Source of the DNA: Scenedesmus sp. PABB004
Taxonomy: Eukaryota
Reading direction: 5' to 3'
Assembly (NCBI GenBank): GCA_014905635.1
Contig: JABVCE010000036.1
Location: 248,001 to 304,485 of the forward strand
DNA: 56,485 nt
Each line of letters begins with the position of its first letter. Position 1 is the first letter of the stretch. Made by a program: the position numbers and the translations under genes. This document shows, piece after piece, positions 16,296 through 56,485 of the stretch. The notes under the pieces are model-generated. The model made no database searches, had not been told where the DNA came from, and saw only the letters and a list, made by a program, of their open reading frames with translations.

Positions 16296-16493
16296 CCACG
16301 GGCTGCGCCGCCGAGGTCGGCCGCCGGCGGCCGCGCCGCGCCGCGGGCCGCGCGCCGCCCGCGCGCGCGCCGCTCGCCGGCGCCGCGGCGCGGCGATGCC
16401 GTGCGCCGTTTCCTTTGCCCCGCCGCCCCTGCGGAGCGGAGGTGCGCGGCTCCAACAGGCTGCCCGGCCACGGGCTGCGCCACCGAGGTCGGC
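16296..16493. repeat. ~172-bp satellite, first segment
   Basis: CCACGGGCTGCGCC recurs at 16296 and 16468 (172 bp apart). Same monomer as 54751-56485. Confidence 0.9.
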
Positions 16494-17043
16494 TGTCAGC
16501 ACCGATGGGGGCTGCTGCCCGATGGAGGCTAGGCCTGGGGCCGGCCGGACTGAGCACTGGTGGGCTTGCATGCGCGCGCAGCAGCGGGGTCACCGGGGCA
16601 TGTACTGCAGCGCGGGTGACCGCGCACGGCAGCGACCGTGCTCTCTGCTGTGTGTGGCGGGGCCTAGTCTGAGGCCTTTTGTGCAGCGGCAGGCGCCATT
16701 GCAAGGCGTGCTGGCCGAGTGGGGGTTACACACCGATTCGCAACCAGTGCGACCTTGCTGACGGGGCAGGGTTCGCCCTTGGCTGCGCGCCCGCTGAGTG
16801 AACTTAGGCGCGCCCCGCGAGGGACGAGCGCCCCCCCAGAACCCAGTCGAGCACCAGCCAACGGTAACCACCGCGCCCGACAGTCCCAGCCGCACGCCGC
16901 GAGCGGGCAGAGGTCGACGCGAGCACTGGGCACGCCACAGGGGGAGCCAGCAAGCAAAGGAAGCGATCGCGACCGCGGCGCGCCAGAGCAGAGTGCTGGG
17001 TCGGGCAGCCGACCGCGAGCATCCCGGGTGGGGCAATCCCTGT
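16494..17043 (+). repeat. Terminal repeat A1 (550 bp)
   Basis: Identical by eye to 28237-28786. Confidence 0.92.
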
Positions 17044-17053
17044 TCTGGGGGGG
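17042..17053 (+). other. Putative self-priming primer-binding site (Tf1-type)
   Basis: GTTCTGGGGGGG is the exact reverse complement of CCCCCCCAGAAC at 16831-16842 inside A1. No tRNA-type PBS seen. Confidence 0.7.
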
Positions 17054-17214
17054 GCCGCTGCTCAGGTAAGCGCCGCGCCGCGCGGCGCATTGCGCTCGGG
17101 GGAGAGCAAGGAGGGCGCAGGAGCGCCCAGCCAGGCCGGGCGACAAGCCGTCGAGCCGCACGTGGCGGCCGACGTGGATCGCCCGACCAACACGTGAGGA
17201 GACGCCCAAAGGGC

Positions 17215-17470
17215 GCGGGAGCTAGCTCGAGCCCACAGGGCCGAGCGGAGCGGAGCCAGCTCGAGCCCAGAGGGCCGAGCGGAGCAGGAGCCAGCTCGAG
17301 CCCACAGGGCCGAGCGGAGCGGAGCCAGCTCGAGCCCACAGGGCCGAGCGGAGCAGGAGCCAGCTCGAGCCCACAGGGCCGAGCGGAGCGGAGCCAGCTC
17401 GAGCCCACAGGGCCGAGCGGAGCAGGAGCCAGCTCGCGCCCAGAGGGCCGAGCGGAGCAGGAGCACAGCG
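17215..17470. repeat. Tandem repeat of alternating 34/35-bp units (69-bp dimer) in the Gypsy leader
   Basis: GAGCCAGCTCGAGCCCACAGGGCCGAGCGGAGC(A)G repeated about 7 times. Confidence 0.85.
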
Positions 17471-17734
17471 CCCAGAGGGCGCGCGAACCGGCCAGGCGCC
17501 GTGCCCAAAGGGAACAAGGGAGCCGCGCACCGCGCCCAGCCCACGGAGCCAAGGCCACAGGCCCCGCCTGGGAGAAGCCCAAGGGGCCGCAAAGCCGGAA
17601 CAAGCGGCCCAGAGGGCCAGGAGCCTGCCCACCGTGGCCACCGCTGAGCCCCGCAAGGAGGCCCAGCGCAATCACCCACGGACCCCGCCGCAGAGAGCGG
17701 CAGCGACTGCGGCAGCGACAGCGACGAGGACGAC

Positions 17735-20700
17735 ATGCTGCGCAACTTCAGCAGCTACGGCCAGCTCGGGCGCGGCAGCCCGCCGCGCGGGCCGCGCTTC
17801 AGCGCCCGCAAGCTGGCGGGCAGCCACAACGGTGAGCAGCTCTGGGCGGGGCAGCCGGGCAAGCCGGCGCAGCAGTGGATCAACGAGGCGCGGGCGGCGA
17901 TCGGCGCCGCGCACAGCAAGAGCACGCAGAGCGGGCGCGCCGTGATGTCGCTCGCGGAGTTCGTGGACCAGCTGCTGGTGAAGGTCGAGCCGGAGAGCGA
18001 GCCCGCCCAGGTGCTCCTCAAGATCCGCGCGGCGCTCGCCGACCACGGCCTGGCGGCAGAGAACGGGCGCTACCTCTGGGCGCGCCCCTCTGCCGAGGAG
18101 GTGCGGCTGGCGCTCGGCCCGAGACAGGACCAGGAGCGGCACAACAAGATGCTGCACGAGGCCTACACAGACCGCGTCGGGGACGTCCTCGACAAGGCGC
18201 TGGAGCGGGGCCTCGTGGTCAGCCAGATGGAGATGGACCAGGTGCGAATGGGCGACGTCCCGCCCATCAGGCCGACGGGCGTCCAGGAGCTCAAGGCCAG
18301 CGCGACCGTCATCTACACCACCACGGGCGACCAGCCCGGCAAGCGCTGGACGCCAGTGCTGTACGTGGTGGAGCGGCTGCTGCTGATCATGGAGCTGCGC
18401 TTCTGCATCGCCACGCAGGAGCAGGTGAGCGAGTTCTTCACCATGCAGCAGGGCGACGCCACGCTGCAGGAGTACGCGCAGCGGATCCGGCAGGCCGTCC
18501 GGACGCTGCGCTGCGAGCTGCACATCATGCCCGACAGCGCGGCGCAGGTGTTCATCGCAGGGCTGAGCAGCGGCGCCTGCAGGGCCATGGTGCAGCAGCA
18601 GGTGATCGCGCAGGGCCTGGGCAGCCTGACGCTGGACAACGTGCTGGAGTGCGCGGAGAAGCACCAGGCAGTCACGCAGTCCACGCTGCGCGCCAGCCTC
18701 TTCCGCAAGGCGGGGCACGATTTCCTCGGCTCCATGGACGCCAAGGTGCAGGGCAGCAAGGAGCGCGGCGGCGGCTCGCGCGAGGTGCAGGGCCCAAGGC
18801 AGGTGGGAGATCGGCGCGGCGCAGGGCAGCGCCCGGGCAACTGGGCCGCCAGCGCGCCGCACCACGCCCTGGCGGGCGCTGCCTTCGCGAGCCAGGACGT
18901 GCGCGCTGACATGCCCTACAGCGCGCCCGCAGGCGCCTACGCCGACGGCTACGACACGCGGCAGTCGTACTACGGCTACAGCCAGCCGCGCGGCCACCAC
19001 CACTGGCAGCAGGCGCGGCCGATGCAGCCGGCGGGCGCGGCGCAGCAGCGCGCGCTGCCGCCGCCAGAGCTGCGCCCGCACACGAGCGGTGGCACCAACC
19101 GCGCGCCCGCGCCCTGCCCCTACTGCCGCTTTGGGCCAGGCCACGCAGTCTGCTGGTACGACCAGCCCAACAAGGCGCCTGCCAACTGGGCGCCTGGCAG
19201 GAACGCTGAGCCCGGCGCGGTGCAGCACTACCTCAGGCGCTGCAAGGAGCTGAAGATCCAGCCGGCCTGGTCTGGTGAGAGCGGCGCGCGGGGCTCCACG
19301 CCCGCGCAGCACCAGCGCCAGCAGCAGGCGCGCGGGCCAGTCGCCGCGGCGGCCCTCTGGCCCGAGTATGAGACCCCGCTGCTGCACCAGCCGCAGGGCA
19401 GCGAGCGCTGGGAGAACAGCAGCCTGAGCAACTGGCAGCACATGCCGGCGGGCTCGCTCTGCGAGATCGGTGAGCACTCGCTGAGCGCAGGCGCGGCCAC
19501 GCGCGGCGCGCGCAGGAGCGTGATGCCCTGCAGCTTCCTGCCGGCGGACAACGCGCAGCCGCGCACGGCGCCGCCGCTGAGCAGCGGCATGGAGCCGGCC
19601 CTGAGCAGGCCGTCTGCCGAACCGGTGCCGCCGCAGTTCAAGGTCAAGATCGTGTTTGAGAGCGAGAAGCCGCTGGCAGCCAGCCAGCTGGGCAAGATCC
19701 AGGAGATGATGCAGGGCCAGGAGATGGAGAACAGCCAGCCGCGCGCAGCAGCGACCAACGCGCCCGTGGCGCTGGCGCAGCTGGCTGAGGATGGCAGAAG
19801 CGCGCAGGCGCTGGAGGAGCTGCACGCCGTCGCAGGCAGCAGCACGAGCTTTGAGCAGCAGATGGCAGCGTTCAAGCGCAGCACAGGGCAGCGCCAGACG
19901 ATGATCAAGTTTGATGGCCCGCAGCTTCCCATGGTGCGCACCAGCGGCGGGCGCGTGATGCAGATGCAGAACACCGCCACCGACTCTGGCTGCGTCCCCT
20001 CTATCATCAACCAGCGCCTGGCGCAGGAGATGGGCCTGCACGTGTACCGGCTGCTGCCGGAGCAGCTGCCACCAGTCAGCACGATCGAGGGCCAGCCCAC
20101 GACCAGCATCATCGGCCGCACTGAGCCGGTGGCGGTCATCCTGGGCCACGGCACCGAGGACGAGGTCAGCCTGGAGCTGCCAGACGGCTTCCTGGTCGTG
20201 GACAGCCCAAGCGCGTACGGCATGTACGGCGCTGTGCTGGGGCGGGACATCATCGACAAAGTGAGCGGCTTCGTGCTGCCGTTCAACAGCCAGTTCTACT
20301 ACATCAGCGGGCGCCCGGCCACCAACGGGGCGAAGCTCGCCTGCATGCAGGTGCGGCTCACCGCGCGCAGCGAGCCGGCGGAACGCACGCCCGCCGCATG
20401 CACGGAGCCGATGCCGGCCTGCACGCTGCGCGCAGAGGAGAACGAGGGCGAGGAGCAGGGCCACGCCAAAAGCGAGCCCAGCTGCAGCTGGCTGCAGCGC
20501 GCGCTCAAGGCGCTGAACACCGCGCGGGACGCGCTGCTGGTGCTGCTGGTGCTGCCGGTCCTGATGCTCCTCAGCCAGGCGCCCCTCATCAGCGCGGGCG
20601 CGGTGCTCGCGCTGGGCGTGGTGGGCCAGGGCGCGGAGGAGGCCTACGCCAGCGCCACCAAGCTCCTGAGCCACACCTGGCACCGGCCCCGCCCTGCGCC

Positions 20701-21295
20701 CAGACTGCCGCTGATCTACACGGCAGTGCGCAGCATCCTCCACAAGGTGGGCTGGCTCTGCGCAGCCGCGCTCTGGGTGCCGCGCGTTCTCGCGTGCTGC
20801 CTGAGCAGCGGGCTGCGAGCCCGGCTGAGCGGCACCTGGCGCCACGTGCGCGCAGGGCTGAAGCAGCACGTGCCCTGGGCGCGCGCACCAGACCTCTACG
20901 TGCGCATCGGGCGCTGGCGCTACCGTTCTATGGAGACGGGCGATGTGCGCTGCCTCAGGCCGCCCATCGCGCCTGACGGCACAGAGTGCAATGCGCCGAG
21001 AAAGTTCAAGATGTGGCGTCGCACCTTCACGCGCGGCTTTGTGCGTAAGGCGCTGCCCCTGCAGTGCGCGCTGCTGCTGCTGCTGATCGCCGGCGCTGCG
21101 GCCACGGGGCACGCCGCTGGCCAGCTCAGCACGCACCTGGCGCCGCCAGGCAGCAGCGCACTGCGCATGCCGTGGGCCGACACACGCGCGCCACTGCCGC
21201 CCTCGCACGCAGAGGCGCAGGCGCAGGCATGGGGAGCAGCACAGCAGCTGCAAACCAACAGCTTTCGCGTCGGCGGCAGGCAGCCGCAGGCGTGA
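17735..21295 (+). CDS. gag: Gypsy ORF1: Gag (capsid plus Cys/His motif), aspartic protease and hydrophobic C-terminal extension
   Basis: Gag-like FTMQQGDATLQEYAQRIRQ...QVFIAGL, CPYCRFGPGHAVC, protease ATDSGC (~19980) and later AVLGRD. Confidence 0.8.
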   Translation: MLRNFSSYGQLGRGSPPRGPRFSARKLAGSHNGEQLWAGQPGKPAQQWINEARAAIGAAHSKSTQSGRAVMSLAEFVDQLLVKVEPESEPAQVLLKIRAALADHGLAAENGRYLWARPSAEEVRLALGPRQDQERHNKMLHEAYTDRVGDVLDKALERGLVVSQMEMDQVRMGDVPPIRPTGVQELKASATVIYTTTGDQPGKRWTPVLYVVERLLLIMELRFCIATQEQVSEFFTMQQGDATLQEYAQRIRQAVRTLRCELHIMPDSAAQVFIAGLSSGACRAMVQQQVIAQGLGSLTLDNVLECAEKHQAVTQSTLRASLFRKAGHDFLGSMDAKVQGSKERGGGSREVQGPRQVGDRRGAGQRPGNWAASAPHHALAGAAFASQDVRADMPYSAPAGAYADGYDTRQSYYGYSQPRGHHHWQQARPMQPAGAAQQRALPPPELRPHTSGGTNRAPAPCPYCRFGPGHAVCWYDQPNKAPANWAPGRNAEPGAVQHYLRRCKELKIQPAWSGESGARGSTPAQHQRQQQARGPVAAAALWPEYETPLLHQPQGSERWENSSLSNWQHMPAGSLCEIGEHSLSAGAATRGARRSVMPCSFLPADNAQPRTAPPLSSGMEPALSRPSAEPVPPQFKVKIVFESEKPLAASQLGKIQEMMQGQEMENSQPRAAATNAPVALAQLAEDGRSAQALEELHAVAGSSTSFEQQMAAFKRSTGQRQTMIKFDGPQLPMVRTSGGRVMQMQNTATDSGCVPSIINQRLAQEMGLHVYRLLPEQLPPVSTIEGQPTTSIIGRTEPVAVILGHGTEDEVSLELPDGFLVVDSPSAYGMYGAVLGRDIIDKVSGFVLPFNSQFYYISGRPATNGAKLACMQVRLTARSEPAERTPAACTEPMPACTLRAEENEGEEQGHAKSEPSCSWLQRALKALNTARDALLVLLVLPVLMLLSQAPLISAGAVLALGVVGQGAEEAYASATKLLSHTWHRPRPAPRLPLIYTAVRSILHKVGWLCAAALWVPRVLACCLSSGLRARLSGTWRHVRAGLKQHVPWARAPDLYVRIGRWRYRSMETGDVRCLRPPIAPDGTECNAPRKFKMWRRTFTRGFVRKALPLQCALLLLLIAGAAATGHAAGQLSTHLAPPGSSALRMPWADTRAPLPPSHAEAQAQAWGAAQQLQTNSFRVGGRQPQA

Positions 21296-21476
21296 GAGCC
21301 AGAGGGGCAAGGATCGGGACCCTGCAGCAGCGGCGATTGGCCAGACGCCGCTGGAGGCGTACACTGCGGGAGGGGAGCAGGAGACAGAGGAGCTCTCTGA
21401 CCGCTGGGAACAGGACCCAGAGCACAAATGGATACATGGGAACCACCCAGAGCTCACAGCAGAGCAGAAAGAGCAG

Positions 21477-24400
21477 TTGCAGCAGGTGCTGCTCGAGCAC
21501 AAAGATGTGTTCGCGTATGAGATGAAGGACTTGGTGGGCTACAAGGGCGAGCTGGGCCCTGCGCAGCTGCGCATGAAGACAGAGGAGCCCATCATCTGCC
21601 CGGAGCGCAAGCCCAGCCCCAGGGACCTGGACATTGGAAGGGAGAAAGTGCGGGAGATGCTTGACGCGGGCGTGATCCGCGAGGTCAGCACACATGGCAT
21701 GACACATGCCTGCCCCATCGTCATGGCGGCGAAGCGAGCGCCTGATGGCACCCTCACTGACAAGAGGTTCTGCTACGATGGGCGGGCGATCAACGCCAAC
21801 GCCGTGATTGACAAGTACAAACTGCCTCTGCCAGAGGAGCTGTTCCGGCGAATGGCAGGTGCTACGTGGCGCAGCAAAGTCGACTGCAGGTCCGGGTTTT
21901 TCAACATCCCGCTGGATGAGGCGTCACAGCGCTACGCGTGCTTCTGGTGGGAAGGCAGGCTGTACAGCTTCACGCGCCTGCCCTTTGGGCACGTGAACGC
22001 CACCGCCATCTTCCAGAGAATAATGGAACACGAACTGCGCGCAGCAGGGCTCAAAGACTTTGCTGTGGTCTTTGTGGATGACATATGTATCTACACTAAG
22101 ACATTTGAGGACCACCTGAGGTGCCTGCGCCTGCTGTTTGGCCGTTTCCGGACGGTCGGGCTGCGCGCGCATCCATCCAAAACGGTGCTGTGCAGCGACT
22201 CCATGCCCTTCCTGGGCCACCTGGTCAGTGAGAGTGGCATGCAGCCTGACCAGGCGAAGGTCGCCGCAATGCGCGAGCTGGCGCCGCCAACCTCGGCTGA
22301 TCAAGTGCGCAGCTACCTGGGCGTGCTGGGCTTTTATCGCTGCTATGTGCCTGAGTACTCGGCTATTGCGGCGCCTCTCAACGCACTGCTCAAGAAAGGC
22401 ACGCGCTTCGTGTGGGGACCAGAGCAGGCGGCTGCCTTTGACAGGCTGCGCGATGCGCTCACCTCACCCACTGCGGTGCTGCGCCACCCAGACCCCTCAC
22501 GGCCATACCACCTGTATACGGACTGGAGCCCTCACGGCATCTCTGCCGTGCTCAACCAGAGAGACCAGAACGGGGGGGAGTACATGGTCGCCTGTGCCTC
22601 TCGCTCGCTCAACGAGCACGAGCGGCGGTACGAGGCCTGGAAAGGTGAGGCGCTGGCGGCAGTATGGGGCGTCAAGACGTTCCGCCCATACCTGCAGGGG
22701 CCCCACTTCCACCTGCACACCGACCACCGCCCGCTGCTCTGGCTACTCGCAGCCAAGGAGCCCACAGGGCAGCACGCGCGCTGGGTGCTGTCGCTGCAGG
22801 ACTACGAGTTCACCCTGGTCCACAAGGCCGGCAAAAGCAACGTGGCAGATGTGCCAAGCAGGCACCCACGAGCCACAACGGTGGACGCGGCAGGTGCGCG
22901 CTTGGACCGCACAAGGGAGCCCATGTATCAGCTGCAGCCGGCAGTGCTGCAGGCTGATGGCACGCCGGACACGACGGAGTACACGTGGGAGCTCCTGGAG
23001 CAGCAGCGCGCAGCGGCCAAGCCGCAGAACAGCACCGCGGCAGGGGCGCTGCTGCTGGGCACAGCCCTGGCGCCGCCCAGCCAGCCGCAGCTGCAGGCAC
23101 AGCTTCTGGAGCGCGCGACGGCTGGTGAGACCCGGCTTGACTCTCTCCTGCCCGACGCCGCCGCGTTGCTGGCAGGCAATAACGGCTCCTTCACAGACGC
23201 GGCGGACCAACTGCCGGATGACGCCTCCTACGCGGCCCAGCTGGCAGCAAGGCAACTGGCGCGCTCGGCGCGCGCATGGGTGCAAGCGGCGGTGCCACAC
23301 CTGCCGGCAGCACAGGCTCAAGCCGCCGCGCCCGCGGGAGGTGCGCACGCGGGGCCGCGTGATGCATTTGGGGTGCGCCGGGCCACAGGTCTGGCCACCG
23401 CCAGCGTGGCGGCGAGTTTCTTTCCGGCAGCGACGCAAGGCCTGGTCCTTGTGGACGCGTTTGGGGGGTTGTGTGCGGGCCTGGAGATGGCCCTGCGTGG
23501 AGGGAAACGCATCCACAAGTACCTGTATGTGGACATCAACCCCACCAGCCGGGCGATAGCAGCGCACAGAGTGCAGCAGCTAACAGCGCTGTATCCTGAC
23601 CTGCTGCCCACGTCTGCCCTGCAGGGCATGTTCTCTCTCCCGCAAGACGTGCGCGAGATCACGACATGGCACCTGGTGCAAGAAGGAGCATCGCTGCAAC
23701 GCCAACCCTGGCTCGTGGTGGGCGGATGGCCCTGCCAGGACCTCAGCACAGCTGGGTCGGGTGCGGGCCTGCGCGGGGCGCGATCAGGCCTGCTCACCGA
23801 GATTGTGCGCCTGATCGGCACGCTGCAGCAGCTGCAACCAGACCAGCCGCCCTGCTACCTGCTGGAGAACGTGCCAGTGCAATGGCACAGCGACAACCGC
23901 ATTGCGGAGGAGGACTTCAAAGTGATTTGTGACGCGCTGGGCCAGCCGACAGTGCTGGACGCAGCGCAGTTTGGGAGCCGCGCGCACCGCGTGCGAGCGT
24001 TTTGGACGAACGCATGCTCACCTGCCCAACTGGCCGCTGCTGCGGCGCAGGTGCAGAGGCCGCCGGGCCTCACGGTCTCACAAATACTGGAGCCTGGGCG
24101 GCGGGAGCAGCCGGTCAAGCACCCTGATTTCCCACCACGCTACCCCTGCAATGTGCCAGGGCAGCCCATGGCAGCCTGGCCAACGCTGATGGCGCACCCC
24201 AACAGCTACAGCTTCAGGCCAGGCAAGCCGGGCAGCGTGATCGCAGCAGACGGCACGTGGGACCAGCCCCTGACAGTCGAGCCTGAGCGCGCGCTCGGCT
24301 ATGCGGAGGGCGCAACAGCCGCGCCTGGCGTGTCGGACAGAGATCGCCGCCGTGCCCTGGGCGAGGCGATCGATGCAGCCTGCCTGGCGGGACTCTGGGC

Positions 24401-26393
24401 GATTGCCCAGGCCTGGGCGGAGCATGGCAGCACACAACCAGTGGCAGGACTTGTGCCCGAGATGGGAGCCAGCAAGGCTGCTGGGAGCAAGCCGTACGGC
24501 GTGCTATGTGCGCTGGCGGCAGCAGCGGAGCAGGACGCCCTGCAGGGCAGCAGCAGTGACATCTGGGCCGACGCAACCGCCCTGCACCTGCTGCAGAACG
24601 GAGACTTCCCAGCGGGCACAAACGCGGCTGAGCGCAGCAGAGTGGCCAAGCGCCGCGCGTACTACCGCTGGCAGGGCGGGCAGTTGCTGCGACTCATGCC
24701 CGACAACAGCACGCGTGTGGTGCCCCCTCCGGCTGAACGGCGGGAGCTGCTCAAGAGCTTCCACGACAGGTGCGGGCACTTTGGCGTGCGCCGCACTGCG
24801 GCACTCGCGCACCACACGCACTGGTGGCACGGCCTGCTGGCCGACGCGGCTTCGCTGGTGGGCGGCTGCCCTGAGTGCGGGCAGGTCCGCGCAGCTTTTA
24901 CAGCGCGCCCAGCTGAGCTGCAGCCGCTGCCCATCCGCGGCATGATGTACCGCTGGGGCGTGGACCTGTGCGGGCCTTTCCCGCGCTCAGAGCGGGGGCA
25001 CCGCTACATCCTGGTGTGTGTGGAGCACTTTAGTAAGAACATTGAGGCCATTCCTATTGCGGAGAAAACGCCAGAGTGCACTGCCTATGCTTTCCTGCAC
25101 AACGTGCTCGCGCGTTTTGGCGCGTGTGCCGAGGTCGTGCACGACCGCGGGGGCGAGTGGCAGGGTGCTTTCCAGCAGCTGCTGCTGGACTGCCTCATTG
25201 ACTCGCGCCCCACTTCAGCCAACCATCCCGCTGCCAATGGCGCGGCGGAGAAATCTGTTCATATTGTGAAGGCAGCCCTGGAGAAAACGTGCCTGCAGCG
25301 GCAGGCAGTGCGTGACTGGGACATGCACGTGCCCTGGCTGCTGCTGGGCTACCGCTGCAGCCCGCAGCGCAGCACCGGCCTCACGCCATATGAGCTGCTC
25401 TATGCACGCGCGCCAATTGTGCCGCCTGCAGTGATGGAGCGGCTGAGCCAGCCGCTGGACCTCGACGCACCTGACCTGGCCGCCGCCGACTTGGCCGCAC
25501 GCAGGCAGCTGGTCGAGCGCCTGGCACCTGAGGCCATGGCGAACCTGGAGATCGCGCAGCAGCGAGACACGCTGCGCTACGCGCGACTGCGAAGCGGGGA
25601 GATCCAGCCAAGAACGCCCACGTTCAAACAAGGTGATTTTGTGTATGTCGCGTACACTCACGCGTACAGCGCGCTGCAGCCACGCGCGCGCCCGGTGATT
25701 CTGCGCGTGCTGGAGGTCAGGCCCAGCGGCCGCCTCATGCTGCAGGGCCGCTGCGGACGCAAGATCGACCGCCACATTTCACAGTGTGCGCCCTGCCACT
25801 TGCCAGGGATCGACCCCACACTTGACCCAGCCCTGGCAGAGCAGCCGCAGGAGGCGAGCTGCGAGGCGTGCGGGCACCTGGAGTCACACACAGCGAACCA
25901 GATGCTGCTGTGCGATCACTGTGACGCGGGCTGGCACCAACACTGCCTGGAGCCGAGCCTGGATCAAGTGCCCGAGGGCGACTGGATGTGCCCGAGGTGC
26001 GTCGCTGACGGCGTGACGCAGCAGCAGCTGCAGGCCGCAGTGCGCCAGCGCCAGGCGCGGGAGCAGCGCGACGAGGGGGCGAACCTCTACCCAGACCGCG
26101 CAATGCGCGAGCGTGACGAGGCAGCCAAGCAGCTGCACGGCAGGCTGGTGCGCCAGCACTTTGTGGATCGGCAGACGGGCCAGCGCAGGCTCTTCTGGGG
26201 CCGCGCGCACTTCATGGGCGAGCAGCGTCGGCCGGCGTACTTTGATGTGTGCTGGGAGGATGGGGACGTGTACCGCTATGCCACAGCGGAGCTCACCAAG
26301 ATCCTCACCCCGCAGGACACGCTCCTGCCCGCAGGCGTGCGCTTGCCACGCGACGGCGCCTTTGGCGACACGACCGCAGGACCCAGCCACTGA
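21477..26393 (+). CDS. pol: Gypsy Pol: RT - RNase H - C5 cytosine methyltransferase - integrase - PHD - Tudor-like (frame open from 21087, probably reached by +1 frameshift)
   Basis: RT: RFCYDGRAIN, RLPFG, FVDDI. RNase H: LYTDWS, GEALA, TDHRPL. MTase: AFGG, GWPCQD, LENV, RVRAFW. Integrase: H-H-C-C, WGVDLCGPF, HDRGGEW, NGAAEK. PHD: CEAC..LLCDHCDAGWHQHCL..WMCPRC. Confidence 0.92.
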   Translation: MQQVLLEHKDVFAYEMKDLVGYKGELGPAQLRMKTEEPIICPERKPSPRDLDIGREKVREMLDAGVIREVSTHGMTHACPIVMAAKRAPDGTLTDKRFCYDGRAINANAVIDKYKLPLPEELFRRMAGATWRSKVDCRSGFFNIPLDEASQRYACFWWEGRLYSFTRLPFGHVNATAIFQRIMEHELRAAGLKDFAVVFVDDICIYTKTFEDHLRCLRLLFGRFRTVGLRAHPSKTVLCSDSMPFLGHLVSESGMQPDQAKVAAMRELAPPTSADQVRSYLGVLGFYRCYVPEYSAIAAPLNALLKKGTRFVWGPEQAAAFDRLRDALTSPTAVLRHPDPSRPYHLYTDWSPHGISAVLNQRDQNGGEYMVACASRSLNEHERRYEAWKGEALAAVWGVKTFRPYLQGPHFHLHTDHRPLLWLLAAKEPTGQHARWVLSLQDYEFTLVHKAGKSNVADVPSRHPRATTVDAAGARLDRTREPMYQLQPAVLQADGTPDTTEYTWELLEQQRAAAKPQNSTAAGALLLGTALAPPSQPQLQAQLLERATAGETRLDSLLPDAAALLAGNNGSFTDAADQLPDDASYAAQLAARQLARSARAWVQAAVPHLPAAQAQAAAPAGGAHAGPRDAFGVRRATGLATASVAASFFPAATQGLVLVDAFGGLCAGLEMALRGGKRIHKYLYVDINPTSRAIAAHRVQQLTALYPDLLPTSALQGMFSLPQDVREITTWHLVQEGASLQRQPWLVVGGWPCQDLSTAGSGAGLRGARSGLLTEIVRLIGTLQQLQPDQPPCYLLENVPVQWHSDNRIAEEDFKVICDALGQPTVLDAAQFGSRAHRVRAFWTNACSPAQLAAAAAQVQRPPGLTVSQILEPGRREQPVKHPDFPPRYPCNVPGQPMAAWPTLMAHPNSYSFRPGKPGSVIAADGTWDQPLTVEPERALGYAEGATAAPGVSDRDRRRALGEAIDAACLAGLWAIAQAWAEHGSTQPVAGLVPEMGASKAAGSKPYGVLCALAAAAEQDALQGSSSDIWADATALHLLQNGDFPAGTNAAERSRVAKRRAYYRWQGGQLLRLMPDNSTRVVPPPAERRELLKSFHDRCGHFGVRRTAALAHHTHWWHGLLADAASLVGGCPECGQVRAAFTARPAELQPLPIRGMMYRWGVDLCGPFPRSERGHRYILVCVEHFSKNIEAIPIAEKTPECTAYAFLHNVLARFGACAEVVHDRGGEWQGAFQQLLLDCLIDSRPTSANHPAANGAAEKSVHIVKAALEKTCLQRQAVRDWDMHVPWLLLGYRCSPQRSTGLTPYELLYARAPIVPPAVMERLSQPLDLDAPDLAAADLAARRQLVERLAPEAMANLEIAQQRDTLRYARLRSGEIQPRTPTFKQGDFVYVAYTHAYSALQPRARPVILRVLEVRPSGRLMLQGRCGRKIDRHISQCAPCHLPGIDPTLDPALAEQPQEASCEACGHLESHTANQMLLCDHCDAGWHQHCLEPSLDQVPEGDWMCPRCVADGVTQQQLQAAVRQRQAREQRDEGANLYPDRAMRERDEAAKQLHGRLVRQHFVDRQTGQRRLFWGRAHFMGEQRRPAYFDVCWEDGDVYRYATAELTKILTPQDTLLPAGVRLPRDGAFGDTTAGPSH

Positions 26394-28033: not shown

Positions 28034-28034
28034 T

Positions 28035-28234: not shown

Positions 28235-28236
28235 GC

Positions 28237-46773: not shown

Positions 46774-46775
46774 GG

Positions 46776-48056: not shown

Positions 48057-48363
48057 CAGCCCCCTCGCCGCGCGACGACCAACACGCAGACACCTTCCTT
48101 GGGCGCCCGTTGGGCGTTGGCCTCTGGCTGTGCCGTTGGGTGATGTGTGTGCCCCCTCTCGGGGGGCGCCGGGGTGCGGTTTTTCACGAGGGGTTGCTGC
48201 GCTCTTCCCGTTGGAGTTTTTTTTTCAATGGGCTGCCCCTGGGCCTCGGTCCTTGTCTGGTCACCCGTTGTAACAAAAAAAAAAAAAAAAAACACGCAGC
48301 CAGCCGGGGTCGCAGCAAGCCCGGCCGCGGACCCCCCCGGCCCCTGCAGCTAGCCGCCGCGCT

Positions 48364-48394
<31 letters not shown>

Positions 48395-48528
48395 GGGGTC
48401 CTGCGCCGCCGGCGGGGCCAGCGCCGGCGCCGCCGGCAGCGCCGGCACGCCCGCTGCGGTGAGCCGGAACTCCATTGTGAAGCGGCCCCCGTGCTGGCCC
48501 GTGCGCGCGATGACCCCTCGGTGGCACC

Positions 48529-48979
48529 TGCCCCGCCGCCCCTGCTGAGCGGAGGTGCGCGGCTCCAACAGGCTGCCCGGCCACGGGCTGCGCCGCCGAG
48601 GTCGGCCGCCGGCGGCCGCGCCGCGCCGCGGGCCGCGCGCCGCCCGCGCGCGCGCCGCTCGCCGGCGCCGCGGCGCGGCGATGCCGTGCGCCGTTTCCCC
48701 TGCCCCGCCGCCCCTGCGGAGCGGAGGTGCGCGGCTCCAACAGGCTGCCCGGCCACGGGCTGCGCCGCCGAGGTCGGCCGCCGGCGGCCGCGCCGCGCCG
48801 CGGGCCGCGCGCCGCCGCGCGCGCGCCGCTCGCCGGCGCCGCGGCGCGGCGATGCCGTGCGCCGTTTCCCCTGCCCCGCCGCCCCTGCGGAGCGGAGGTG
48901 CGCGGCTCCAACAGGCTGCCCGGCCACGGGCTGCGCCGCCGAGGTCGGCCGCCGGCGGCCGCGCCGCGCCGCGGGCCGC
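48529..48979. repeat. 172-bp satellite (~2.6 monomers)
   Basis: Same monomer. Confidence 0.9.
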
Positions 48980-49333
48980 ACTTGGTCGGAGTAGGCGCGG
49001 TTGTTGCCGGCTAGAAGAGCGAGTCGACAACGGCGGACAGCGGCGGTTGGCCAACGAGAGAGCACGGAGACACGAGTGAAGGAGCAAAGGTTACATGTGC
49101 GTGGTGAAGAGACTCCTTAGGCAAACGGGGCGGGCGCACGGAGCTATATAGCCGAAACGGTATCGGTAATCGCAGCTTCTCGGCGGCTGCCGGTAGCTGC
49201 GCCGTAAGCAGCTTCCACCGCGGTTAGCACCTTCCACAAGAGCCCAACTAAGGCCCAAAGTTCCGAGTAGCTTCCTTTAGGCTCCATGCACGCAATGGGG
49301 TGAGTGTGCGGCCGAAAACACGCACTCTCATCA
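48980..49333 (-). repeat. Copia 3' LTR
   Basis: Identical to 54397-54750; contains TATATA and minus-strand TGTAA. Confidence 0.92.
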
Positions 49334-49353
49334 CTCCCACGCGGACGCAACAC

Positions 49354-52300
49354 TCACACCATGCCCATGCCGGTGCGGCACGCCACAAACTTGGACAGCG
49401 CCAGCGGCTTGGTGAGCGCGTCGGCGATGTTGTCGTCCGTGGGCACGTAGTGGAACGTGACCTCGCCGCGGGCCACGCGCTCGCGCGCAAAGTGGTGCGC
49501 GACGTCAATGTGCTTCGAGCGCTGCGAGGACACGGGGTTGCGCAGCAGCTTGATCGCACCCTGGTTGTCGGAGAGGATGTCGATGGCGCCGATGTTGACC
49601 TTGAGGTCGCTCATGAGCTTGCGCAGCCAGAGGGCCTCCTTGACCGCAGCGGAGGCGGCCATGTACTCGGCCTCGGTGGTGGAGGCTGCGACGGTCTGCT
49701 GCTTCTTGCTGGACCAGGTGATTGCGCCGCCGTTGAGGGTGAAGACGTAGCCGGTGGTCGAGCGGCGCGTGTCGAGGTCGGCCGCGTAGTCCGAGTCACA
49801 CATGCCGTTGAGGTCCAGGCTGCCCTTGATGCCGCCGTAGATGATGCCAATGTTGGTGGTGCCGGCCAGGTAGCGGAGCACGCCCTTGGCCACGCCCCAG
49901 TGCACGGTCGTGGGGCAGGACATGAAGCGTGTCAACGCGCTCACCGCAAAGGCGATGTCGGGGCGCACCGTGATGGAGAGGTAGAGGAGCGCTCCCACGA
50001 GCGACGTGTAGGGGTAGGCCGCGGTGTCGAGCGGGTCGCCGTTGTCCTTGGTGAGCTTGGTGCCGAGGCTCACGGGGATGTCGCGGGGCGCGCAGTCGGC
50101 GAGCCCGTACTTGAAGACGAGCTCGGTCACCATCTTCTCGTTGGTGATCTTGATGGTCTTGTTGATGCGGTCGCGCGTGATGTGCATGCCGAGGTACTGG
50201 CTCACCTCGCCGAGGTCGCGGGTCTTGAAGGCGGCAAAGAGCTCCGCCTTGACCGACTCGGCGAGCGCGCAGTTGCGCGCAATGATGAGGATGTCGTCGA
50301 CGTAGATGAGGATGTACGCGCCGGAGGTGCCGACGTAGAGCGATGCGTCGGCCTTGGACGGCGCGAAGCCCATCTTGGTGAGCTCCTCGTGCAGGCGCGA
50401 GTGCCACGCGCGCGGGGCCTGCTTGAGGCCGTAGAGCGCCTTGATCAGGCGGCACGCGCGGCCGGAGCCGTCGTCGTAGCCCTCGGGCTGGCTGATCCAC
50501 ACCTCCTCCTCGAGGTTGCCTTGGAGGAAGGCGTTCTTAATGTCGATTTGGATGATCTCGTAGTCGTGCGCAGCGGCGAGCGCGAGCACCGCGCGCAGCG
50601 TGGCGTACTTGCCGACGGGGGCGAAGACCTCGTCGTAGTCGATGCCCTCGATCTGGTGGAAGCCCTTGGCGACGATGCGGCCCTTGTAGCGCTCGATGTT
50701 GCCGGCGAGGTCGGTCTTGGTCGTGAGGACCCACTTGGTCGGGATGATCTTGACGCCGGCGGGCGGCACGTCGAGCTCCCACGTGTTGTTGGCCACGTGG
50801 GCGGCGATCTCCTCGTTCATGGCGTCGTCCCACTTGGACGCGTCGAGCCGGCCGAGCGCCTCGGTGCGCGTGGCCGGGTCGGGCAAGACCTGCCCCGCGT
50901 AGTGCGCGGCGGCGGCGGCGTTCCACCACTCACCGGGCTTGCGCGACACGCGCCCCGAGCGCGTGATGGTGCCGCCGGTGGTGGAGTCGGTGCCGCCGGC
51001 GGTCGGCGCCGGCATGTTGTCGTTGCTCTCGGGCGCCGGGCTCGGCGCGGGCGGCGGCGAGCCGCCCGGGCTCGAGGGCGGGGAGCCGCCGGGGCTCGCG
51101 GGCGGGGAGCCGCCCGGGGTGCCCGGCGGGGAGCCGCTCGGCGGCGCACCGTCGTGCGCGCCGGAGTCGGGCTCGTCCTCAAAGGCGTCGTCCGCCGGGA
51201 ACTTCTCGGCGGCGTAGCGGGTGATGTCGGGGTCGATGAGCGTCGGGGACTTGTAGTTGGCGAAGCTCTTGGAGAGCACCTTGCTCTCGTCGAAGACGAC
51301 GTTGCGGCTCAACTTGATGTTGCCGTCGGGCATGAGGATGCGGTAGCCCTTGCCAAAGGCCGGGTAGCCCACCATGATGCCCTTCTCGGCGTGCGGCTCG
51401 AGCTTGGTCCTCTTCTCCTTGGGCACGTGGGCGTAGGCCGTGGCGCCAAAGACGCGGAGCGTTGACACGTCGGGCTTGCGGCCGAAGAAGGCCTCGAACG
51501 GCGTCTTGGGCTTGCCGCTCACGGGAGAGAGGTTGCGGAGGTGGTTGGCCGTCATGATCGCCTCACCCCACGCCGCGGGCGGGAGCTCGGCGGCGTAGAT
51601 CATGGGGAGCACCTTGTTGAGGAGCGTGCGGTTGAGCCGCTCGGCGGTGCCGTTTTGCTCGGGCGTGTAGGGCATGGTCTTTTGGTGCGCGATGCCCTTG
51701 TCCTTGAAGAAGCCAGAGAGGTCGGCGTTGACGTACTCGGAGCCGTTGTCGGTGCGGACGGCCTTGACGTGGGCGTCGGTTTGCTTCTCCATGTAGGTGA
51801 GCACCTCCTTGACGGCCGGCGTGACGTCGGCCTTGCTCTTGAGCGTGCGCACGATGGAGTAGCCCGTCGCGTGGTCGATGAAGGTCGCGGCGTACTTGGC
51901 GCCGCCGTAAGAGAGCTCGGTCATGGGGCCGCACACGTCCATGCTCACGAGCGCGAGCGGCGTGTCGTACACCGTCGCGGACTCACCGAAGGGGAGGCGC
52001 GTCGTCTTGCCCATCACGCACGGCTCGCACATGGGGAGCGCCTTGAAGTCGGTGGTCGTGAGGTCCATGCCGGTCACCATGCCGTGCTTGGCGGCGCGCT
52101 CGAGGTTGGCGTAGCCGAGGTGGCCAAGGCGCGCGTGCCACACCTCGGGCGCCTCTTTGGCAATGAGCGCCGGGCTCGGGGAGCCGCGGAGCGTGTTGCT
52201 CACGATGCACGGGATGCCGTTGGGCGCGTCGATGGCGGTGACGATCGTCTCGCCGCCCATGCGCACGGCGCACTTGTTGCCCTCCATGATGAACGTGGCG

Positions 52301-53484
52301 CCGGCGAGCTTGGCCATCTTGATGGAGACGAGCTTGGCCGCAAAGCCGGGGATGTAGAGCACGCGGCGGAGCACGATGCGCCGCGAGATGACGTTGGACT
52401 CGTGCAAGATGGCGTCGCCCTCGAGCTCGGCGGCGACCACCTCGCCGGTGCCCACGATGACCTTGGTCGAGCACGGCTTGGGGTTGTTGAGGTCGCCGGC
52501 GTCGTTGGTGATGTGGCGCTCGGCCCCCGAGTCGATGAACCACGTGCACGCGTAGTCCGGGTTGTCGTAGTCGGGAGCGAGCGTGGTGGCGGTCCACGCC
52601 ACCTCGCGCCGCTCGGTGTCGGGCGTGCCCTTGCGCGCCTCGACCGCGGCCCGCTCGCGGCACTCACCGATGAAGTGGCCGGGCTTCTTGCAATAGTAGC
52701 ACACGTCTTTGGCGTCCTTGGACGCGCCGAAGCAAGGCCGGTTGCCGCCGGGCGAGCCGCCGCCGTTGAACGGGCGCGGCGAGTTGACGAAGCGCGACGC
52801 GCCGAGCATGGGCGCGCGCGGGTTGAAGGGCTTGTTGAAGCGCGGGTTGAACGTCTTGTTGAGCGGCTTGAACTTGGGCCGCGGCGCGGTCGCAAAGTAG
52901 GCCTTCTCGGTGTTGGCCGGGGTTTGCGCCTCCACGGTCAAGAGCTCGGAGATGACCTCCTCGAGCGTGGGGAAGGGCTTCTTGCTCATGATGATCTTCT
53001 TGGTGACCTCGTACGCGCTCGGGAGCTTGTCGAGCATGGCGAGCGAGATGTCCATGTCGTCCACCGTGGCGCCGGCGGAGATGAGGTTGTCCTTGAGCGC
53101 GTACGCGCGGCCGGCAAAGGCCGTGATGGTCTCGGTGTTGCCCTTGGCGAGCGTGCTCAACTCGCGCTTGAAGCGCACGATGCTTGCCGTGTTTTGGGTG
53201 TGGTACATGTTGGCGAGCTTGTCCCACGCTTCCTTGGCGGTGGTGCACGTTTGGATGAGTGGCAAGATCTTGTTGTCGACGGAGAGGACGATGGCGGCAA
53301 GGGCCTTGTCGTCGCGCGCGGCGTCGCGCGCGGGCGCGGCGTCGGCGTCGTTGCCGGGCGGCGGCGCGTCGATGAGCGCGCCATAGAAGCCCTTGAGCTT
53401 GAGGTAGAAGGTAATCTTGGTGCTCCACGTGACGTAGTTGGAGCCGGTGAATCGCTCAACGCCAAACTTTTCAAAGTCCATCAT
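49354..53484 (-). CDS. Copia Gag-Pol polyprotein (gag, CCHC knuckle, protease, integrase, RT, RNase H), 1376 aa
   Basis: CYYCKKPGHFIGEC; WFIDSGA; WHARLGH..CEPC; SMDVCGP, RTDNGSEY, QNGTAER; YGLKQAPRAW, YVDD; CDSDYA, TEAEY. Confidence 0.95.
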   Translation of the reverse strand: MMDFEKFGVERFTGSNYVTWSTKITFYLKLKGFYGALIDAPPPGNDADAAPARDAARDDKALAAIVLSVDNKILPLIQTCTTAKEAWDKLANMYHTQNTASIVRFKRELSTLAKGNTETITAFAGRAYALKDNLISAGATVDDMDISLAMLDKLPSAYEVTKKIIMSKKPFPTLEEVISELLTVEAQTPANTEKAYFATAPRPKFKPLNKTFNPRFNKPFNPRAPMLGASRFVNSPRPFNGGGSPGGNRPCFGASKDAKDVCYYCKKPGHFIGECRERAAVEARKGTPDTERREVAWTATTLAPDYDNPDYACTWFIDSGAERHITNDAGDLNNPKPCSTKVIVGTGEVVAAELEGDAILHESNVISRRIVLRRVLYIPGFAAKLVSIKMAKLAGATFIMEGNKCAVRMGGETIVTAIDAPNGIPCIVSNTLRGSPSPALIAKEAPEVWHARLGHLGYANLERAAKHGMVTGMDLTTTDFKALPMCEPCVMGKTTRLPFGESATVYDTPLALVSMDVCGPMTELSYGGAKYAATFIDHATGYSIVRTLKSKADVTPAVKEVLTYMEKQTDAHVKAVRTDNGSEYVNADLSGFFKDKGIAHQKTMPYTPEQNGTAERLNRTLLNKVLPMIYAAELPPAAWGEAIMTANHLRNLSPVSGKPKTPFEAFFGRKPDVSTLRVFGATAYAHVPKEKRTKLEPHAEKGIMVGYPAFGKGYRILMPDGNIKLSRNVVFDESKVLSKSFANYKSPTLIDPDITRYAAEKFPADDAFEDEPDSGAHDGAPPSGSPPGTPGGSPPASPGGSPPSSPGGSPPPAPSPAPESNDNMPAPTAGGTDSTTGGTITRSGRVSRKPGEWWNAAAAAHYAGQVLPDPATRTEALGRLDASKWDDAMNEEIAAHVANNTWELDVPPAGVKIIPTKWVLTTKTDLAGNIERYKGRIVAKGFHQIEGIDYDEVFAPVGKYATLRAVLALAAAHDYEIIQIDIKNAFLQGNLEEEVWISQPEGYDDGSGRACRLIKALYGLKQAPRAWHSRLHEELTKMGFAPSKADASLYVGTSGAYILIYVDDILIIARNCALAESVKAELFAAFKTRDLGEVSQYLGMHITRDRINKTIKITNEKMVTELVFKYGLADCAPRDIPVSLGTKLTKDNGDPLDTAAYPYTSLVGALLYLSITVRPDIAFAVSALTRFMSCPTTVHWGVAKGVLRYLAGTTNIGIIYGGIKGSLDLNGMCDSDYAADLDTRRSTTGYVFTLNGGAITWSSKKQQTVAASTTEAEYMAASAAVKEALWLRKLMSDLKVNIGAIDILSDNQGAIKLLRNPVSSQRSKHIDVAHHFARERVARGEVTFHYVPTDDNIADALTKPLALSKFVACRTGMGMV

Positions 53485-54384
53485 GACGGTAGCCGCGTTG
53501 GCGGGCCGATGGAGTTATTGGCGGATGTCTCCCACGTCACGCCGCGCCGTAGACGCGCGCACGTACGAGGTGTACGGACGCCCCGCCTAGATGTCCGATG
53601 CACGCGGCCGAGACGTACGCACACCTACGTACGGCGCGGGCGCGGGCGGACGGCGAAGGGGGCAAGGCCCCTTTGAAGTTAGCTCAGGTTTGGAGACACG
53701 AGGCGCGCGCTAGCGTAGCGTGCGAGCGTAGCCGAGGCGCACGCGCGGGCGCAAGAGCGGCCGGGCGCGAGCGCGGCGCGCGTTACGAGTTGGTCGAGGG
53801 CGCCGAGGGTCGTAGGGGCGCGAGGGTCGAGGGCGCCGAGAGTCGTAGGGGCGCGAGGGTCGAGGGATGTCCTCCAACGTCACGCCGCCGTGTAGACACG
53901 CACGCCCAAGGTGCACGGACGCCCGCCTTGATGACCGATGCGCACGGCCGGGTCGTACGTACACCTGTGAGCGGCGCGGGCGGGCGGACGGGCGAAGGGC
54001 CGAGGCCCTTGAGCGCGAGAAGAGGCAAAGTCGGCGCGAGAAGGGCCGACGTCGAGCGCGCGGCGCCGAGTAGATCGAGCGCGGCGCGGGAAGCGCGACG
54101 GAGCGCGACGGAGCGCAAACGAGCACGCGCGAGCAAGCGCGGCGCGATTTACTGCGTTTGACGAGGGCGACTCAAGTAAAAGAAGTCGCGGACAAGGGGC
54201 GATGGCCTCTGCCAAGCGCCAAGTAGACAATAGGGCTCTCGAATAGGACGGTGGAGGTCGCAGGATCGAATCTGGGGCCTTCTTTTTGGGCCGCTTGACG
54301 GAGGCCTCCGGAGCTCCGCGGAGTTGTCGAGTTGCCGGAGCGATGCGCGCGAAGCCTCCGCGATGCCTTTAGAGCACCGGGGAT

Positions 54385-54396
54385 GGGCTCATAACC
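54385..54396 (-). other. Primer-binding site complementary to the anticodon-arm region of initiator tRNA-Met (half-tRNA priming)
   Basis: Minus strand reads GGTTATGAGCCC directly after the 5' LTR. Confidence 0.8.
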
Positions 54397-54750
54397 ACTT
54401 GGTCGGAGTAGGCGCGGTTGTTGCCGGCTAGAAGAGCGAGTCGACAACGGCGGACAGCGGCGGTTGGCCAACGAGAGAGCACGGAGACACGAGTGAAGGA
54501 GCAAAGGTTACATGTGCGTGGTGAAGAGACTCCTTAGGCAAACGGGGCGGGCGCACGGAGCTATATAGCCGAAACGGTATCGGTAATCGCAGCTTCTCGG
54601 CGGCTGCCGGTAGCTGCGCCGTAAGCAGCTTCCACCGCGGTTAGCACCTTCCACAAGAGCCCAACTAAGGCCCAAAGTTCCGAGTAGCTTCCTTTAGGCT
54701 CCATGCACGCAATGGGGTGAGTGTGCGGCCGAAAACACGCACTCTCATCA
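54397..54750 (-). repeat. Copia 5' LTR
   Basis: Identical to 48980-49333. Confidence 0.92.
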
Positions 54751-56485
54751 CCGCCGCGCGCCGCCGCGGCGCGGCGCCGCTCGCCGCGCCGCGGCGCGGC
54801 GATGCCGTGCGCCGTTTCCCCTGCCCGCCGCCCCTGCGGAGCGGAGGTGCGCGGCTCCAACAGGCTGCCCGGCCACGGGCTGCGCCGCCGAGGTCGGCCG
54901 CCGGCGGCCGCGCCGCGCCGCGGGCCGCGCGCCGCCCGCGCGCGCGCGCTCGCCGGCGCCGCGGCGCGGCGATGCCGTGCGCCGTTTCCCCTGCCCCGCC
55001 GCCCCTGCGGAGCGGAGGTGCGCGGCTCCAACAGGCTGCCCGGCCACGGGCTGCGCCGCCGAGGTCGGCCGCCGGCGGCCGCGCCGCGCCGCGGGCCGCG
55101 CGCCGCCGCGGCGCGCCGCTCGCCGGCGCCGCGGCGGGCGATGCCGTGCGCCGTTTCCCCTGCCCCGCCGCCCCTGCGGAGCGGAGGTGCGCGGCTCCAA
55201 CAGGCTGCCCGGCCACGGGCTGCGCCGCCGAGGTCGGCCGCCGGCGGCCGCGCGCGCCGCGGGCCGCGCGCCGCCCGCGCGCGCGCGCCGCTCGCCGGCG
55301 CCGCGGCGCGGCGATGCCGTGCGCCGTTTCCCCTGCCCCGCCGCCCCTGCGGAGCGGAGGTGCGCGGCTCCAACGGCTGCCCGGCCACGGGCTGCGCCGC
55401 CGAGGTCGGCCGCGGCGGCCGCGCCGCGCCGCGGGCCGCGCGCCGCCGCGCGCGCGCGCCGCTCGCCGGCGCCGCGGCGCGGCGATGCCGTGCGCCGTTT
55501 CCCCTGCCCCGCCGCCCCTGCGGAGCGGAGGTGCGCGGCTCCAACAGGCTGCCCGGCCACGGGCTGCGCCGCCGAGGTCGGCCGCCGGCGGCCGCGCCGC
55601 GCCGCGGGCCGCGCGCCGCGCCGCCCGCGCGCGGCGCGCTCGCTCGCCGCGCCGGGCGCGGCGATGCCGTGCGCCGTTTCCCCTGCCCCGCCGCCCCTGC
55701 GGAGCGCAGGTGGCGGCGCTCCAACACTGCCCGGCCACGGGCTGCGCCGCCGAGGTCGGCCGCCGGCGGCAGCGCCGCGCCGCGGGCCGCGCGCCGCCCG
55801 CGCGCGCGCCGCTCGCCGGGCGCGGCGCGCGGCGATGCCGTGCGCCGTTTCCCCTGCCCCGCCGCCCCTGCGGAGCGGAGGTGCGCGGCTCCAACAGGCT
55901 GCCCGGCCACGGGCTGCGCCGCCGAGGTCGGCCGCCGGCGGCCGCGCCGCGCCGCGGGCGCGCGCGCCGCGCCGCGCGGCGCCGCTCGCCGGCGCCGCGG
56001 CGCGGCGCTGCCGTGCGCCGTTTCCCCTGCCCCGCCGCCCCTGCGGAGCGGAGGTGCGCGGCTCCAACAGGCTGCCCGGCCACGGTCTGCGCCGCCGAGG
56101 TCGGCCGCCGCGGCCGCGCCGCGCCGCGGGCCGCGCGCCCCCGCGCGCGCGCGCTCGCCGGCGCCGCGGCGCGGCGATGCCGTGCGCCGTTTCCCCTGCC
56201 CCGCCGCCCCTGCGGAGCGGAGGTGCGCGGCTCCAACAGGCTGCCCGGCCACGGGCTGCGCCGCCGAGGTCGGCCGCCGGCGGCCGCGCCGCGCCGCGGG
56301 CCGCGCGCCGCCCGCGCGCGCGCCGCTCGCGGCGCCGGCGGCGCGGCGATGCCGTGCGCCGTTTCCCCTGCCCCGCCGCCCTGCGGAGCGGAGGTGCGCG
56401 GCTCCAAACAGGCTGCCCGGCCACGGGCTGCGCCGCCGAGGTCGGCCGCCCGGCGGCCGGCCGCGCCCGCGGGCCGCGCGCCGCC
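54751..56485. repeat. Tandem array of ~172-bp GC-rich satellite (~10 monomers, running off the window)
   Basis: CCACGG anchor at 54873, 55044, 55213, 55385, 55557, 55735, 55907, 56080, 56249 and 56421. Confidence 0.95.

Follow-up and report, generated by a model that had tools for sequence, protein, structure and literature searches.

The last 56 kb of contig C31 of the green alga Scenedesmus sp. PABB004 (C31:248001-304485; 56,485 bp, hereafter the window) change abruptly from host genes to a gene-free zone made of a 172-bp satellite, satA, and of retroelements inserted into it. Most likely the zone belongs to a small regional centromere of mixed satellite and retroelement composition, of which C31 carries one side; this candidate is supported at the level of genome anatomy. 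One gene-free, satellite-based cluster is found per chromosome, off the telomeres, and it was repeatedly entered by retroelements restricted to such clusters.

One satellite-based cluster per chromosome

The assembly comprises 39.97 Mb in 80 contigs, C31 being 304,485 bp long. satA (88% GC, 42 CpG per 172-bp monomer) was counted with a 15-nt monomer seed in the window and with a 17-nt core in the whole genome, the reversed core serving as a control. The core has 957 exact matches and its reversed form none. The listing of match positions is complete for C1-C8 (857 of the 957 matches are outside the listing), and all 96 matches on these contigs fall within a single locus per contig. Two contigs, C1 (4.85 Mb) and C2 (1.59 Mb), extend from telomere to telomere, and each has exactly one internal array. 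Genome-wide mapping of the monomer, proposed in an earlier reading of the window made from its sequence alone (the sequence-only reading), thus agrees with one locus per chromosome, away from the ends, on both complete chromosomes. The C2 array (1,439,240-1,448,127) holds 52 satA monomers and all 49 core matches of this contig. It consists of 8.9 kb of satA and an adjoining RTE stub, with neither L1 nor Copia within the 30 kb inspected, and no C2 match was present among the candidates scored in the genome searches with the L1 reverse transcriptase (RT), the L1 3' end and the Copia long terminal repeat (LTR).

Since the core search of the whole C1 contig found no satA, C1 was searched further, which led to a second satellite, satB. 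The Copia and the L1 of the window both pointed to C1 at 1.99-2.02 Mb, where satB fills the space between them. satB is also 172 bp long (90% GC) and occupies C1:1986619-2012272 and C10:108573-130900, the C1 and C10 variants being 86% alike. Of the 148 matches to a satB motif, 94 are on C1 (94/94 in one array) and 48 were placed on C10; the remaining six, outside the listing, would fit one further 2-kb stretch of C10. L1 of the window family has invaded satB on both contigs, and Copia of the window family on C1. The two satellites are about 67% identical, on the same strand in 12/12 pairs. Compared with 100 composition-matched shuffles, their similarity gives z of 1.1-4.0 over the 12 pairs, four of which score above all shuffles; an earlier, looser test with 30 shuffles gave z of about 4. 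satA and satB are probably homologous. The length of 172 bp is common to both families and all their variants. Variants of satA are contig-specific (90-99% identity to the window monomer), and satA is homogenised within each chromosome. Stretched units of 207-208 bp were observed at C9:827078-829347 and C9:837112-839473, where tandem mosaics of satA and RTE 3' ends represent variants arising from insertions.

Internal clusters are located on C1 (~36 kb), C2 (~9 kb), C3 (~35 kb), C10 (~22 kb) and C13 (~32 kb). A further 23 clusters lie at non-telomeric ends of contigs longer than 80 kb: 21 with clear satellite and two thinly supported ones, C6 (Copia/L1 only) and C26 (a 27-bp piece). Five internal clusters and half of the 23 contig-end clusters make about 16.5 (16-17) loci. 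Two clusters were never seen on one contig of more than 80 kb. Satellite fills most of the cluster interior in C1, C10 and C13, and the makeup ranges from satellite alone (C2) to a predominance of retroelements (C31, C3). The free ends of C46, C76 and C12 and the start of C35 have no cluster within 10-15 kb.

We inspected 129 of the 160 contig ends, 3-10 kb per end. Telomeric repeat terminates 36 of them, which corresponds to about 18 chromosomes if none is duplicated; for S. obliquus, 2n = 34 has been reported (10.1101/2022.11.30.518549). satA, satB or another 172-bp tandem was found in the outer 3-5 kb of none of the 36 telomeric ends. C31 has a telomere at its start, with 264 kb between it and the first monomer, and its opposite end stops in satA. 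C15, C21, C24, C67 and C77 are shaped like C31, with a telomere at one end and a cluster at the other.

The interrupted array of C31 and its invaders

The host genes leftward of the zone code for Vps52, an AMP-binding enzyme and a HAD hydrolase, and this flank has 79% GC. Pfam matched five of the 25 frames within 16.3-56.5 kb, every one of them a retroelement protein, so the zone is gene-free and has a sharp edge. Its features are given below in window coordinates.

15436..16092, + strand: 3' exons of the final host gene (HAD-like hydrolase; Pfam HAD_2 E 4e-12, Hydrolase E 2e-11), at the left edge of the cluster
16148..16231, + strand: 84-bp 3' stub of an L1, A-tailed, lying between the host gene and satA and bordered by a ~12-bp direct repeat (90-96% to other L1 3' ends)
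16295..16493, + strand: satA, 1.15 monomers, the first satellite
16494..28985, + strand: Gypsy-like retroelement with DNMT3-like domain and PHD finger, TG...CA ends and 4-bp target duplication (repeat layout kept in second copy)
17648..21295, + strand: open reading frame (ORF) of the Gypsy element, 1215 aa stop to stop, gag-like by its position (no Pfam match)
21087..26393, + strand: pol ORF of the Gypsy element, 1768 aa open, with RT, RNase H, C5-methyltransferase, integrase (H2C2 and rve) and PHD (Pfam)
26017..27720, + strand: third ORF of the Gypsy element (no Pfam match)
28986..29134, + strand: satA, restarting at monomer position 24
29136..31086, + strand: 5'-truncated non-LTR element with short tandem 3' tail, RTE/RTE-X-like (RVT_1 E 5e-4)
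31087..31353, + strand: satA, 1.5 monomers
31354..35250, - strand: truncated second Copia family with further insertions, LTR piece from 31354, RT/RNase H frame 33100-35046 (RVT_2 E 2e-67)
35535..37659, both orientations: nest of L1 fragments and 3' ends
37660..38234, + strand: satA pieces 37660-37984 and 38054-38234 with an L1 3' stub between them
38060..41232, no strand assigned: tandem of a 1,219-bp composite (one satA monomer and L1 pieces), ~2.6 copies (99.3% over 1961 bp)
39279..39453 and 40497..40671, + strand: satA inside the composite unit
41232..48056, - strand: long L1 with intact endonuclease and RT frame (41761-47658 open), inside an L1 fragment (Pfam Exo_endo_phos and RVT_1 in one frame)
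48057..48979, + strand: remainder of the composite unit, then satA 48527-48979 (2.6 monomers)
48980..54750, - strand: intact Copia, LTRs ~48980-49333 and ~54397-54750, 1386-aa frame 49354-53514 (Pfam, LTR comparison)
54753..56485, + strand: terminal satA array, 10.1 copies, ended by the end of C31

The sequence-only reading had host genes stopping at 16092 with the satellite some 200 bp later, and satA does start at 16295. The recurrence it described, on one strand, was found at every place it listed, together with one piece (38054-38234) it had not listed. satA forms nine pieces in the window, all in the plus orientation and with 93-100% identity to the terminal-array monomer; the seed has 20 matches on the plus strand and none on the minus strand. 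In total these pieces make 3,657 bp (~21 monomers), or 9.1% of 16295-56485, the remainder being retroelements. The zone had been described as a candidate edge of a centromere. Its left boundary is indeed sharp, but fully bounded clusters measure only 9-36 kb, so the 40 kb of C31 are probably much of the centromeric cluster.

The composite copies at 38060-40015 and 39279-41232 are 99.3% identical, and 48057-48701 is a further part of the same unit. The satA pieces at 38.1, 39.3, 40.5 and 48.5 kb are therefore not independent events, being largely copies of one satellite and L1 composite. Four L1/satA junctions in the window fall at monomer position 122. A fixed L1 target site in the monomer was considered and rejected, since these junctions are copies of one composite and other contigs differ. 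Indels are scattered over the terminal monomers in the manner of read errors. Contigs from four public freshwater runs (four studies) contain satA pieces, and one freshwater-run contig holds a 5,411-base Copia copy with 29 differences. We also rejected satA as a structured RNA, as the monomer folds no better than its shuffles (z -0.40).

According to the sequence-only reading, Gypsy, RTE, L1 and Copia insertions each interrupt a monomer. Register and target duplications bear this out for the Gypsy, RTE-like and Copia elements; satA continues in register beyond both the RTE-like insertion and the intact Copia. It does not hold for the long L1, which sits in an L1 fragment, the monomer-interrupting L1 pieces in the window being 3' stubs only.

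The window L1 is of the type with Exo_endo_phos and RVT_1 in a single frame and an A-tail. All matches of its RT in the genome (23/23; all 21 candidates scored) and of its 3' end (65/65; best 40 of 106 candidates scored) lie in clusters or small repeat contigs, and the same is true for the Copia LTR (42/42; best 40 of 45 candidates scored). L1 makes up one nested cluster per chromosome, mostly of 3' ends, C2 being without a match. The RTE-like family is dispersed over arms and subtelomeres and serves as an internal control: as it is dispersed while L1 and Copia are confined, cluster confinement must be a property of particular families. We take the 29136-31086 element to be RTE- or RTE-X-like from its 3' tail type. 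RTE-like fragments were also observed 0.2-0.9 kb from telomeric repeat on six ends (C15, C25, C29, C32, C49 and C67).

The two LTRs of the intact Copia are 99.2% alike, suggesting a recent invasion. Copies of this Copia are flanked by differing target duplications of ~5 bp in satA, satB and L1. In the copies inspected, its LTRs (48980 and 54750 in the window) open with TG and close with GA or GT, not CA. The second, truncated Copia family has 52% amino acid identity to the intact one and is also present in the C1 cluster. Extra inserts are seen within it at 31770-32940, including a diverged RTE-like 3' end at ~32880-32940, with an 18-bp tandem (31476-31535) before them.

Near-identical L1 and Copia proteins in the protein database are labelled Scenedesmus, and the next named Copia relatives are from Tetradesmus and Chromochloris. 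None of the 120 listed of 262 L1 protein matches is labelled Zepp. A Chromochloris Copia family shares 47-49% identity with the intact Copia, and its 10 gene ids fall into one neighbourhood on each of six chromosomes. This family may be the centromeric Copia of that alga. A quick tree of 41 of the 120 listed matches did not join the window and Chromochloris Copias as sisters, its branching being unresolved.

Rfam matched no RNA family anywhere in the window. Elsewhere in the assembly three contigs, C78-C80, have 27-37% GC and are probably organelle DNA.

A Gypsy element with a DNMT3-like methyltransferase

The first insertion, at 16494-28985, interrupts a satA monomer, which continues in register after a 4-bp duplication. 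The sequence-only reading called it Gypsy. Its pol is of the Gypsy type; the DNMT3-like methyltransferase, the PHD finger and the split repeats had been overlooked. The repeats are arranged as B (16494-17043), internal part, A (28035-28234), B (28237-28785) and A (28786-28985). Every one of the 26 structures that the methyltransferase part matches in the PDB is DNMT3A/B/C, and its translation contains the FGG, PC and ENV motifs. A DIRS/Ngaro identity was rejected on account of the rve and H2C2 domains and the TG...CA ends with the 4-bp duplication; Pfam found no tyrosine recombinase family in the three frames. The A/B junction at 28225-28245 reads CA, two bases, TG, and resembles joined element ends. 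In the leader of the element, 17218-17469 is a 35/34-bp tandem of 7.3 copies.

A second full copy, C21:30206-43019, is located in the C21 cluster within an L1 stub and has its own 4-bp duplication and the same split layout. The internal parts of the two copies are 99.9% alike. A protein search of the genome for the DNMT3-like part found only these two (4/4 candidates scored), so that 2/2 copies are inside clusters, at independent sites, while clusters take up roughly 0.6-0.7 Mb of 40 Mb (a rough tally). Old terminal-repeat relics of the element exist outside clusters, including a solo B+A at C13:2209774-2210512 (78%), and they weaken the case for strict centromere targeting of this lineage.

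The domain architecture is widespread in green algae, with 101 matches. Named ones come from Monoraphidium, Scenedesmus and Cymbomonas, and none of the 101 is labelled Klebsormidium. KnitGypsy-Dnmt3 of Klebsormidium nitens (PMC5890265) is described as having, like the window element, a DNMT3-like domain inside a Gypsy-type pol and DIRS-like split repeats combined with Gypsy domains. The window element differs in its chlorophyte host, its C-terminal PHD finger and the location of both copies in candidate centromeres; the main text of PMC5890265 never uses the word PHD. The Klebsormidium methyltransferase domain showed no activity in yeast, in an assay that its authors call inconclusive (PMC5890265). 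Another account lists Gypsy-DNMT3 for streptophytes and EpiLTRs for Cymbomonas (10.64898/2026.05.21.726589). In our literature search, which took in few subscription papers and left supplements aside, neither a chlorophyte Gypsy-DNMT3 nor a split-repeat Gypsy turned up beyond KnitGypsy-Dnmt3 and the Cymbomonas EpiLTRs. Gypsy-DNMT3, in print from Klebsormidium, is now placed in chlorophytes and inside candidate centromeres.

The centromere reading and its alternatives

If the clusters are centromeres, a head-to-tail array of the CpG-dense 172-bp satellite would form the scaffold. Young retroelements have cut this array apart: L1 by nesting in itself and in the satellite, Copia at many different sites in satA, satB and L1, and Gypsy-DNMT3 with its two copies. 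CENH3 nucleosomes may occupy the satellite, about one per monomer, and the CpG-dense array may constitute methylated heterochromatin around the CENH3 domain. Unequal exchange would homogenise the monomers within a chromosome and amplify mosaic units like the 1,219-bp one. Since L1 and Copia enter two satellites only ~67% alike, and each other, and the Copia target duplications differ across satA, satB and L1, we expect centromeric chromatin, and not a sequence, to guide both elements.

Several points weigh against the centromere reading. The locus count of 16.5 is below the at least 18 chromosomes, some small telomeric contigs may be duplicates, and six large contigs (C4, C12, C14, C16, C46 and C76) have no cluster at the ends inspected. 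As 31 of the 160 ends were outside the survey and some listings and scorings were partial, some chromosome may have a second locus. Arrays may have been collapsed in the assembly, which makes their sizes lower bounds. The cluster at C7:3710-12634 was observed to hold satA in both orientations, the other arrays inspected having one orientation.

The region may be centromeric with CENH3 seated on L1 or Copia, as on ZeppL in Chlamydomonas, the satellite being flanking or passenger DNA. The small share of satellite in the C31 zone (9%) and the restriction of L1 and Copia to clusters fit such an arrangement. In Chlamydomonas satellites are reported merely to flank some ZeppL clusters (PMC9940879), so a satellite beside a centromeric L1 need not bear CENH3. 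We nevertheless consider this arrangement improbable: the sole cluster seen on C2 is satA with an RTE stub, and the cluster interiors of C1, C10 and C13 are mostly satellite. The same observations bear on the hybrid satellite and L1 centromere put forward by the sequence-only reading. Its centromeric part is supported; the common element is the satellite, as C2 manages without L1, and there are two satellite families.

The clusters could also be non-centromeric heterochromatic blocks, knob-like sinks where repeats pile up in the absence of genes, with cryptic centromeres elsewhere. Cryptic centromeres are known in green algae, being reported for four of four in a centromere atlas (10.64898/2026.09.17.752431), and there are AT-rich candidates in Auxenochlorella. 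We hold this for quite improbable, given that each complete chromosome has a single locus and no contig was seen with two, that two different satellites fill the same single role on different chromosomes, and that a dispersed RTE-like family makes cluster confinement family-specific.

A subtelomeric array like the Sultan arrays of Chlamydomonas, which the sequence-only reading had named as the alternative, is most improbable and is rejected at the assembly level. The C31 array does stand at a contig end, and a contig end is as near as 143 kb to the C2 array and ~109 kb to the C10 array; the satellite is never next to telomeric repeat (0/36), five arrays are internal and the telomere of C31 is at its far end. 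The one long tandem at a telomeric end, a 281-bp repeat (16.7 copies) adjoining the telomere of C27, is a different repeat without a satA match, a true subtelomeric satellite. An assembly artefact with collapsed or mis-joined repeats, to which the indels of the terminal monomers and the contig break could point, is hardly conceivable in view of the clean target duplications and the recovery of satA and Copia from freshwater runs.

The candidate centromere of C31 can be compared with three known kinds. In Arabidopsis, CEN178 with ATHILA/Tal1 is a satellite centromere invaded by retroelements. Land-plant satellite centromeres with centrophilic retroelements, a mixed state described in the atlas (10.64898/2026.09.17.752431), share with the alga monomers of 100-200 bp in head-to-tail arrays, variants specific to single chromosomes, young insertions of LTR elements, the use of two families on different chromosomes and tandem units that are mosaics of satellite and transposon. 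According to the same source, centromeric satellites are not generally AT-rich and genomes with two families are known. The alga differs in its assembled arrays, which have tens of monomers (clusters of 9-36 kb) and not megabases, in its monomers, with 88-90% GC and about half of the bases in CpG, and in being a chlorophyte.

With the Zepp and ZeppL-1_cRei clusters of Coccomyxa and Chlamydomonas (PMC8226300, PMC9940879, 10.1101/2025.03.28.645958) the alga shares a single L1 cluster on each chromosome, in which the element is nested in itself and 3' ends pile up, and arms free of the element. Chlamydomonas centromeres are reported as CENH3-validated at ZeppL clusters (10.1101/2025.03.28.645958). 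In our alga, by contrast, what the clusters have in common is the satellite, and L1 is missing from the locus of one complete chromosome. The Copia centromeres of Chromochloris zofingiensis and the mixed Copia/L1/RTE-X ones of Chlorella (PMC11005252) resemble the clusters described here in their size of tens of kb and in the mix of Copia, L1 and RTE-type elements. In Chlorella sorokiniana such one-per-chromosome L1/Copia clusters are described as CENH3-validated centromeres. Two Chlorella centromere sets are presented there as free of tandem satellites, unlike the clusters of our alga. Bounded clusters here measure 9-36 kb, similar to the 23-52 kb given for Coccomyxa, Chromochloris and Chlorella (PMC11005252).

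A bolder reading adds the Gypsy element to the satellite centromere. CENH3 would sit on a monomer of 88-90% GC conserved in length and not in sequence, and the Gypsy-DNMT3-PHD element would seek centromeres and methylate the CpG of the satellite de novo. The satellite-centromere part alone is likely. The whole is unlikely, with only two Gypsy-DNMT3 copies, one of which was the starting point of the analysis. If true, a retroelement enzyme would help to write centromeric chromatin.

A 2025 account describes green-algal centromeres so far as "transposon-enriched regions" (PMC12636532), and our literature search, with most subscription papers and all supplements outside its reach, brought up no chlorophyte with a satellite centromere. 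The new finding, with good support from genome anatomy, is a small mixed satellite/retroelement candidate centromere in a lineage described with only transposon or cryptic centromeres. Because the clusters are small, differ widely in makeup (C2 being all satellite, C31 and C3 largely retroelement) and come with two families of equal length, one 40-Mb genome makes three questions testable: which of satellite and transposon CENH3 favours, whether the monomer is under a length constraint, and by what means L1, Copia and Gypsy reach centromeres. If the reading is true, the satellite state, here a one-per-chromosome satellite of nucleosome size in a sphaeroplealean alga, would have arisen in chlorophytes too.

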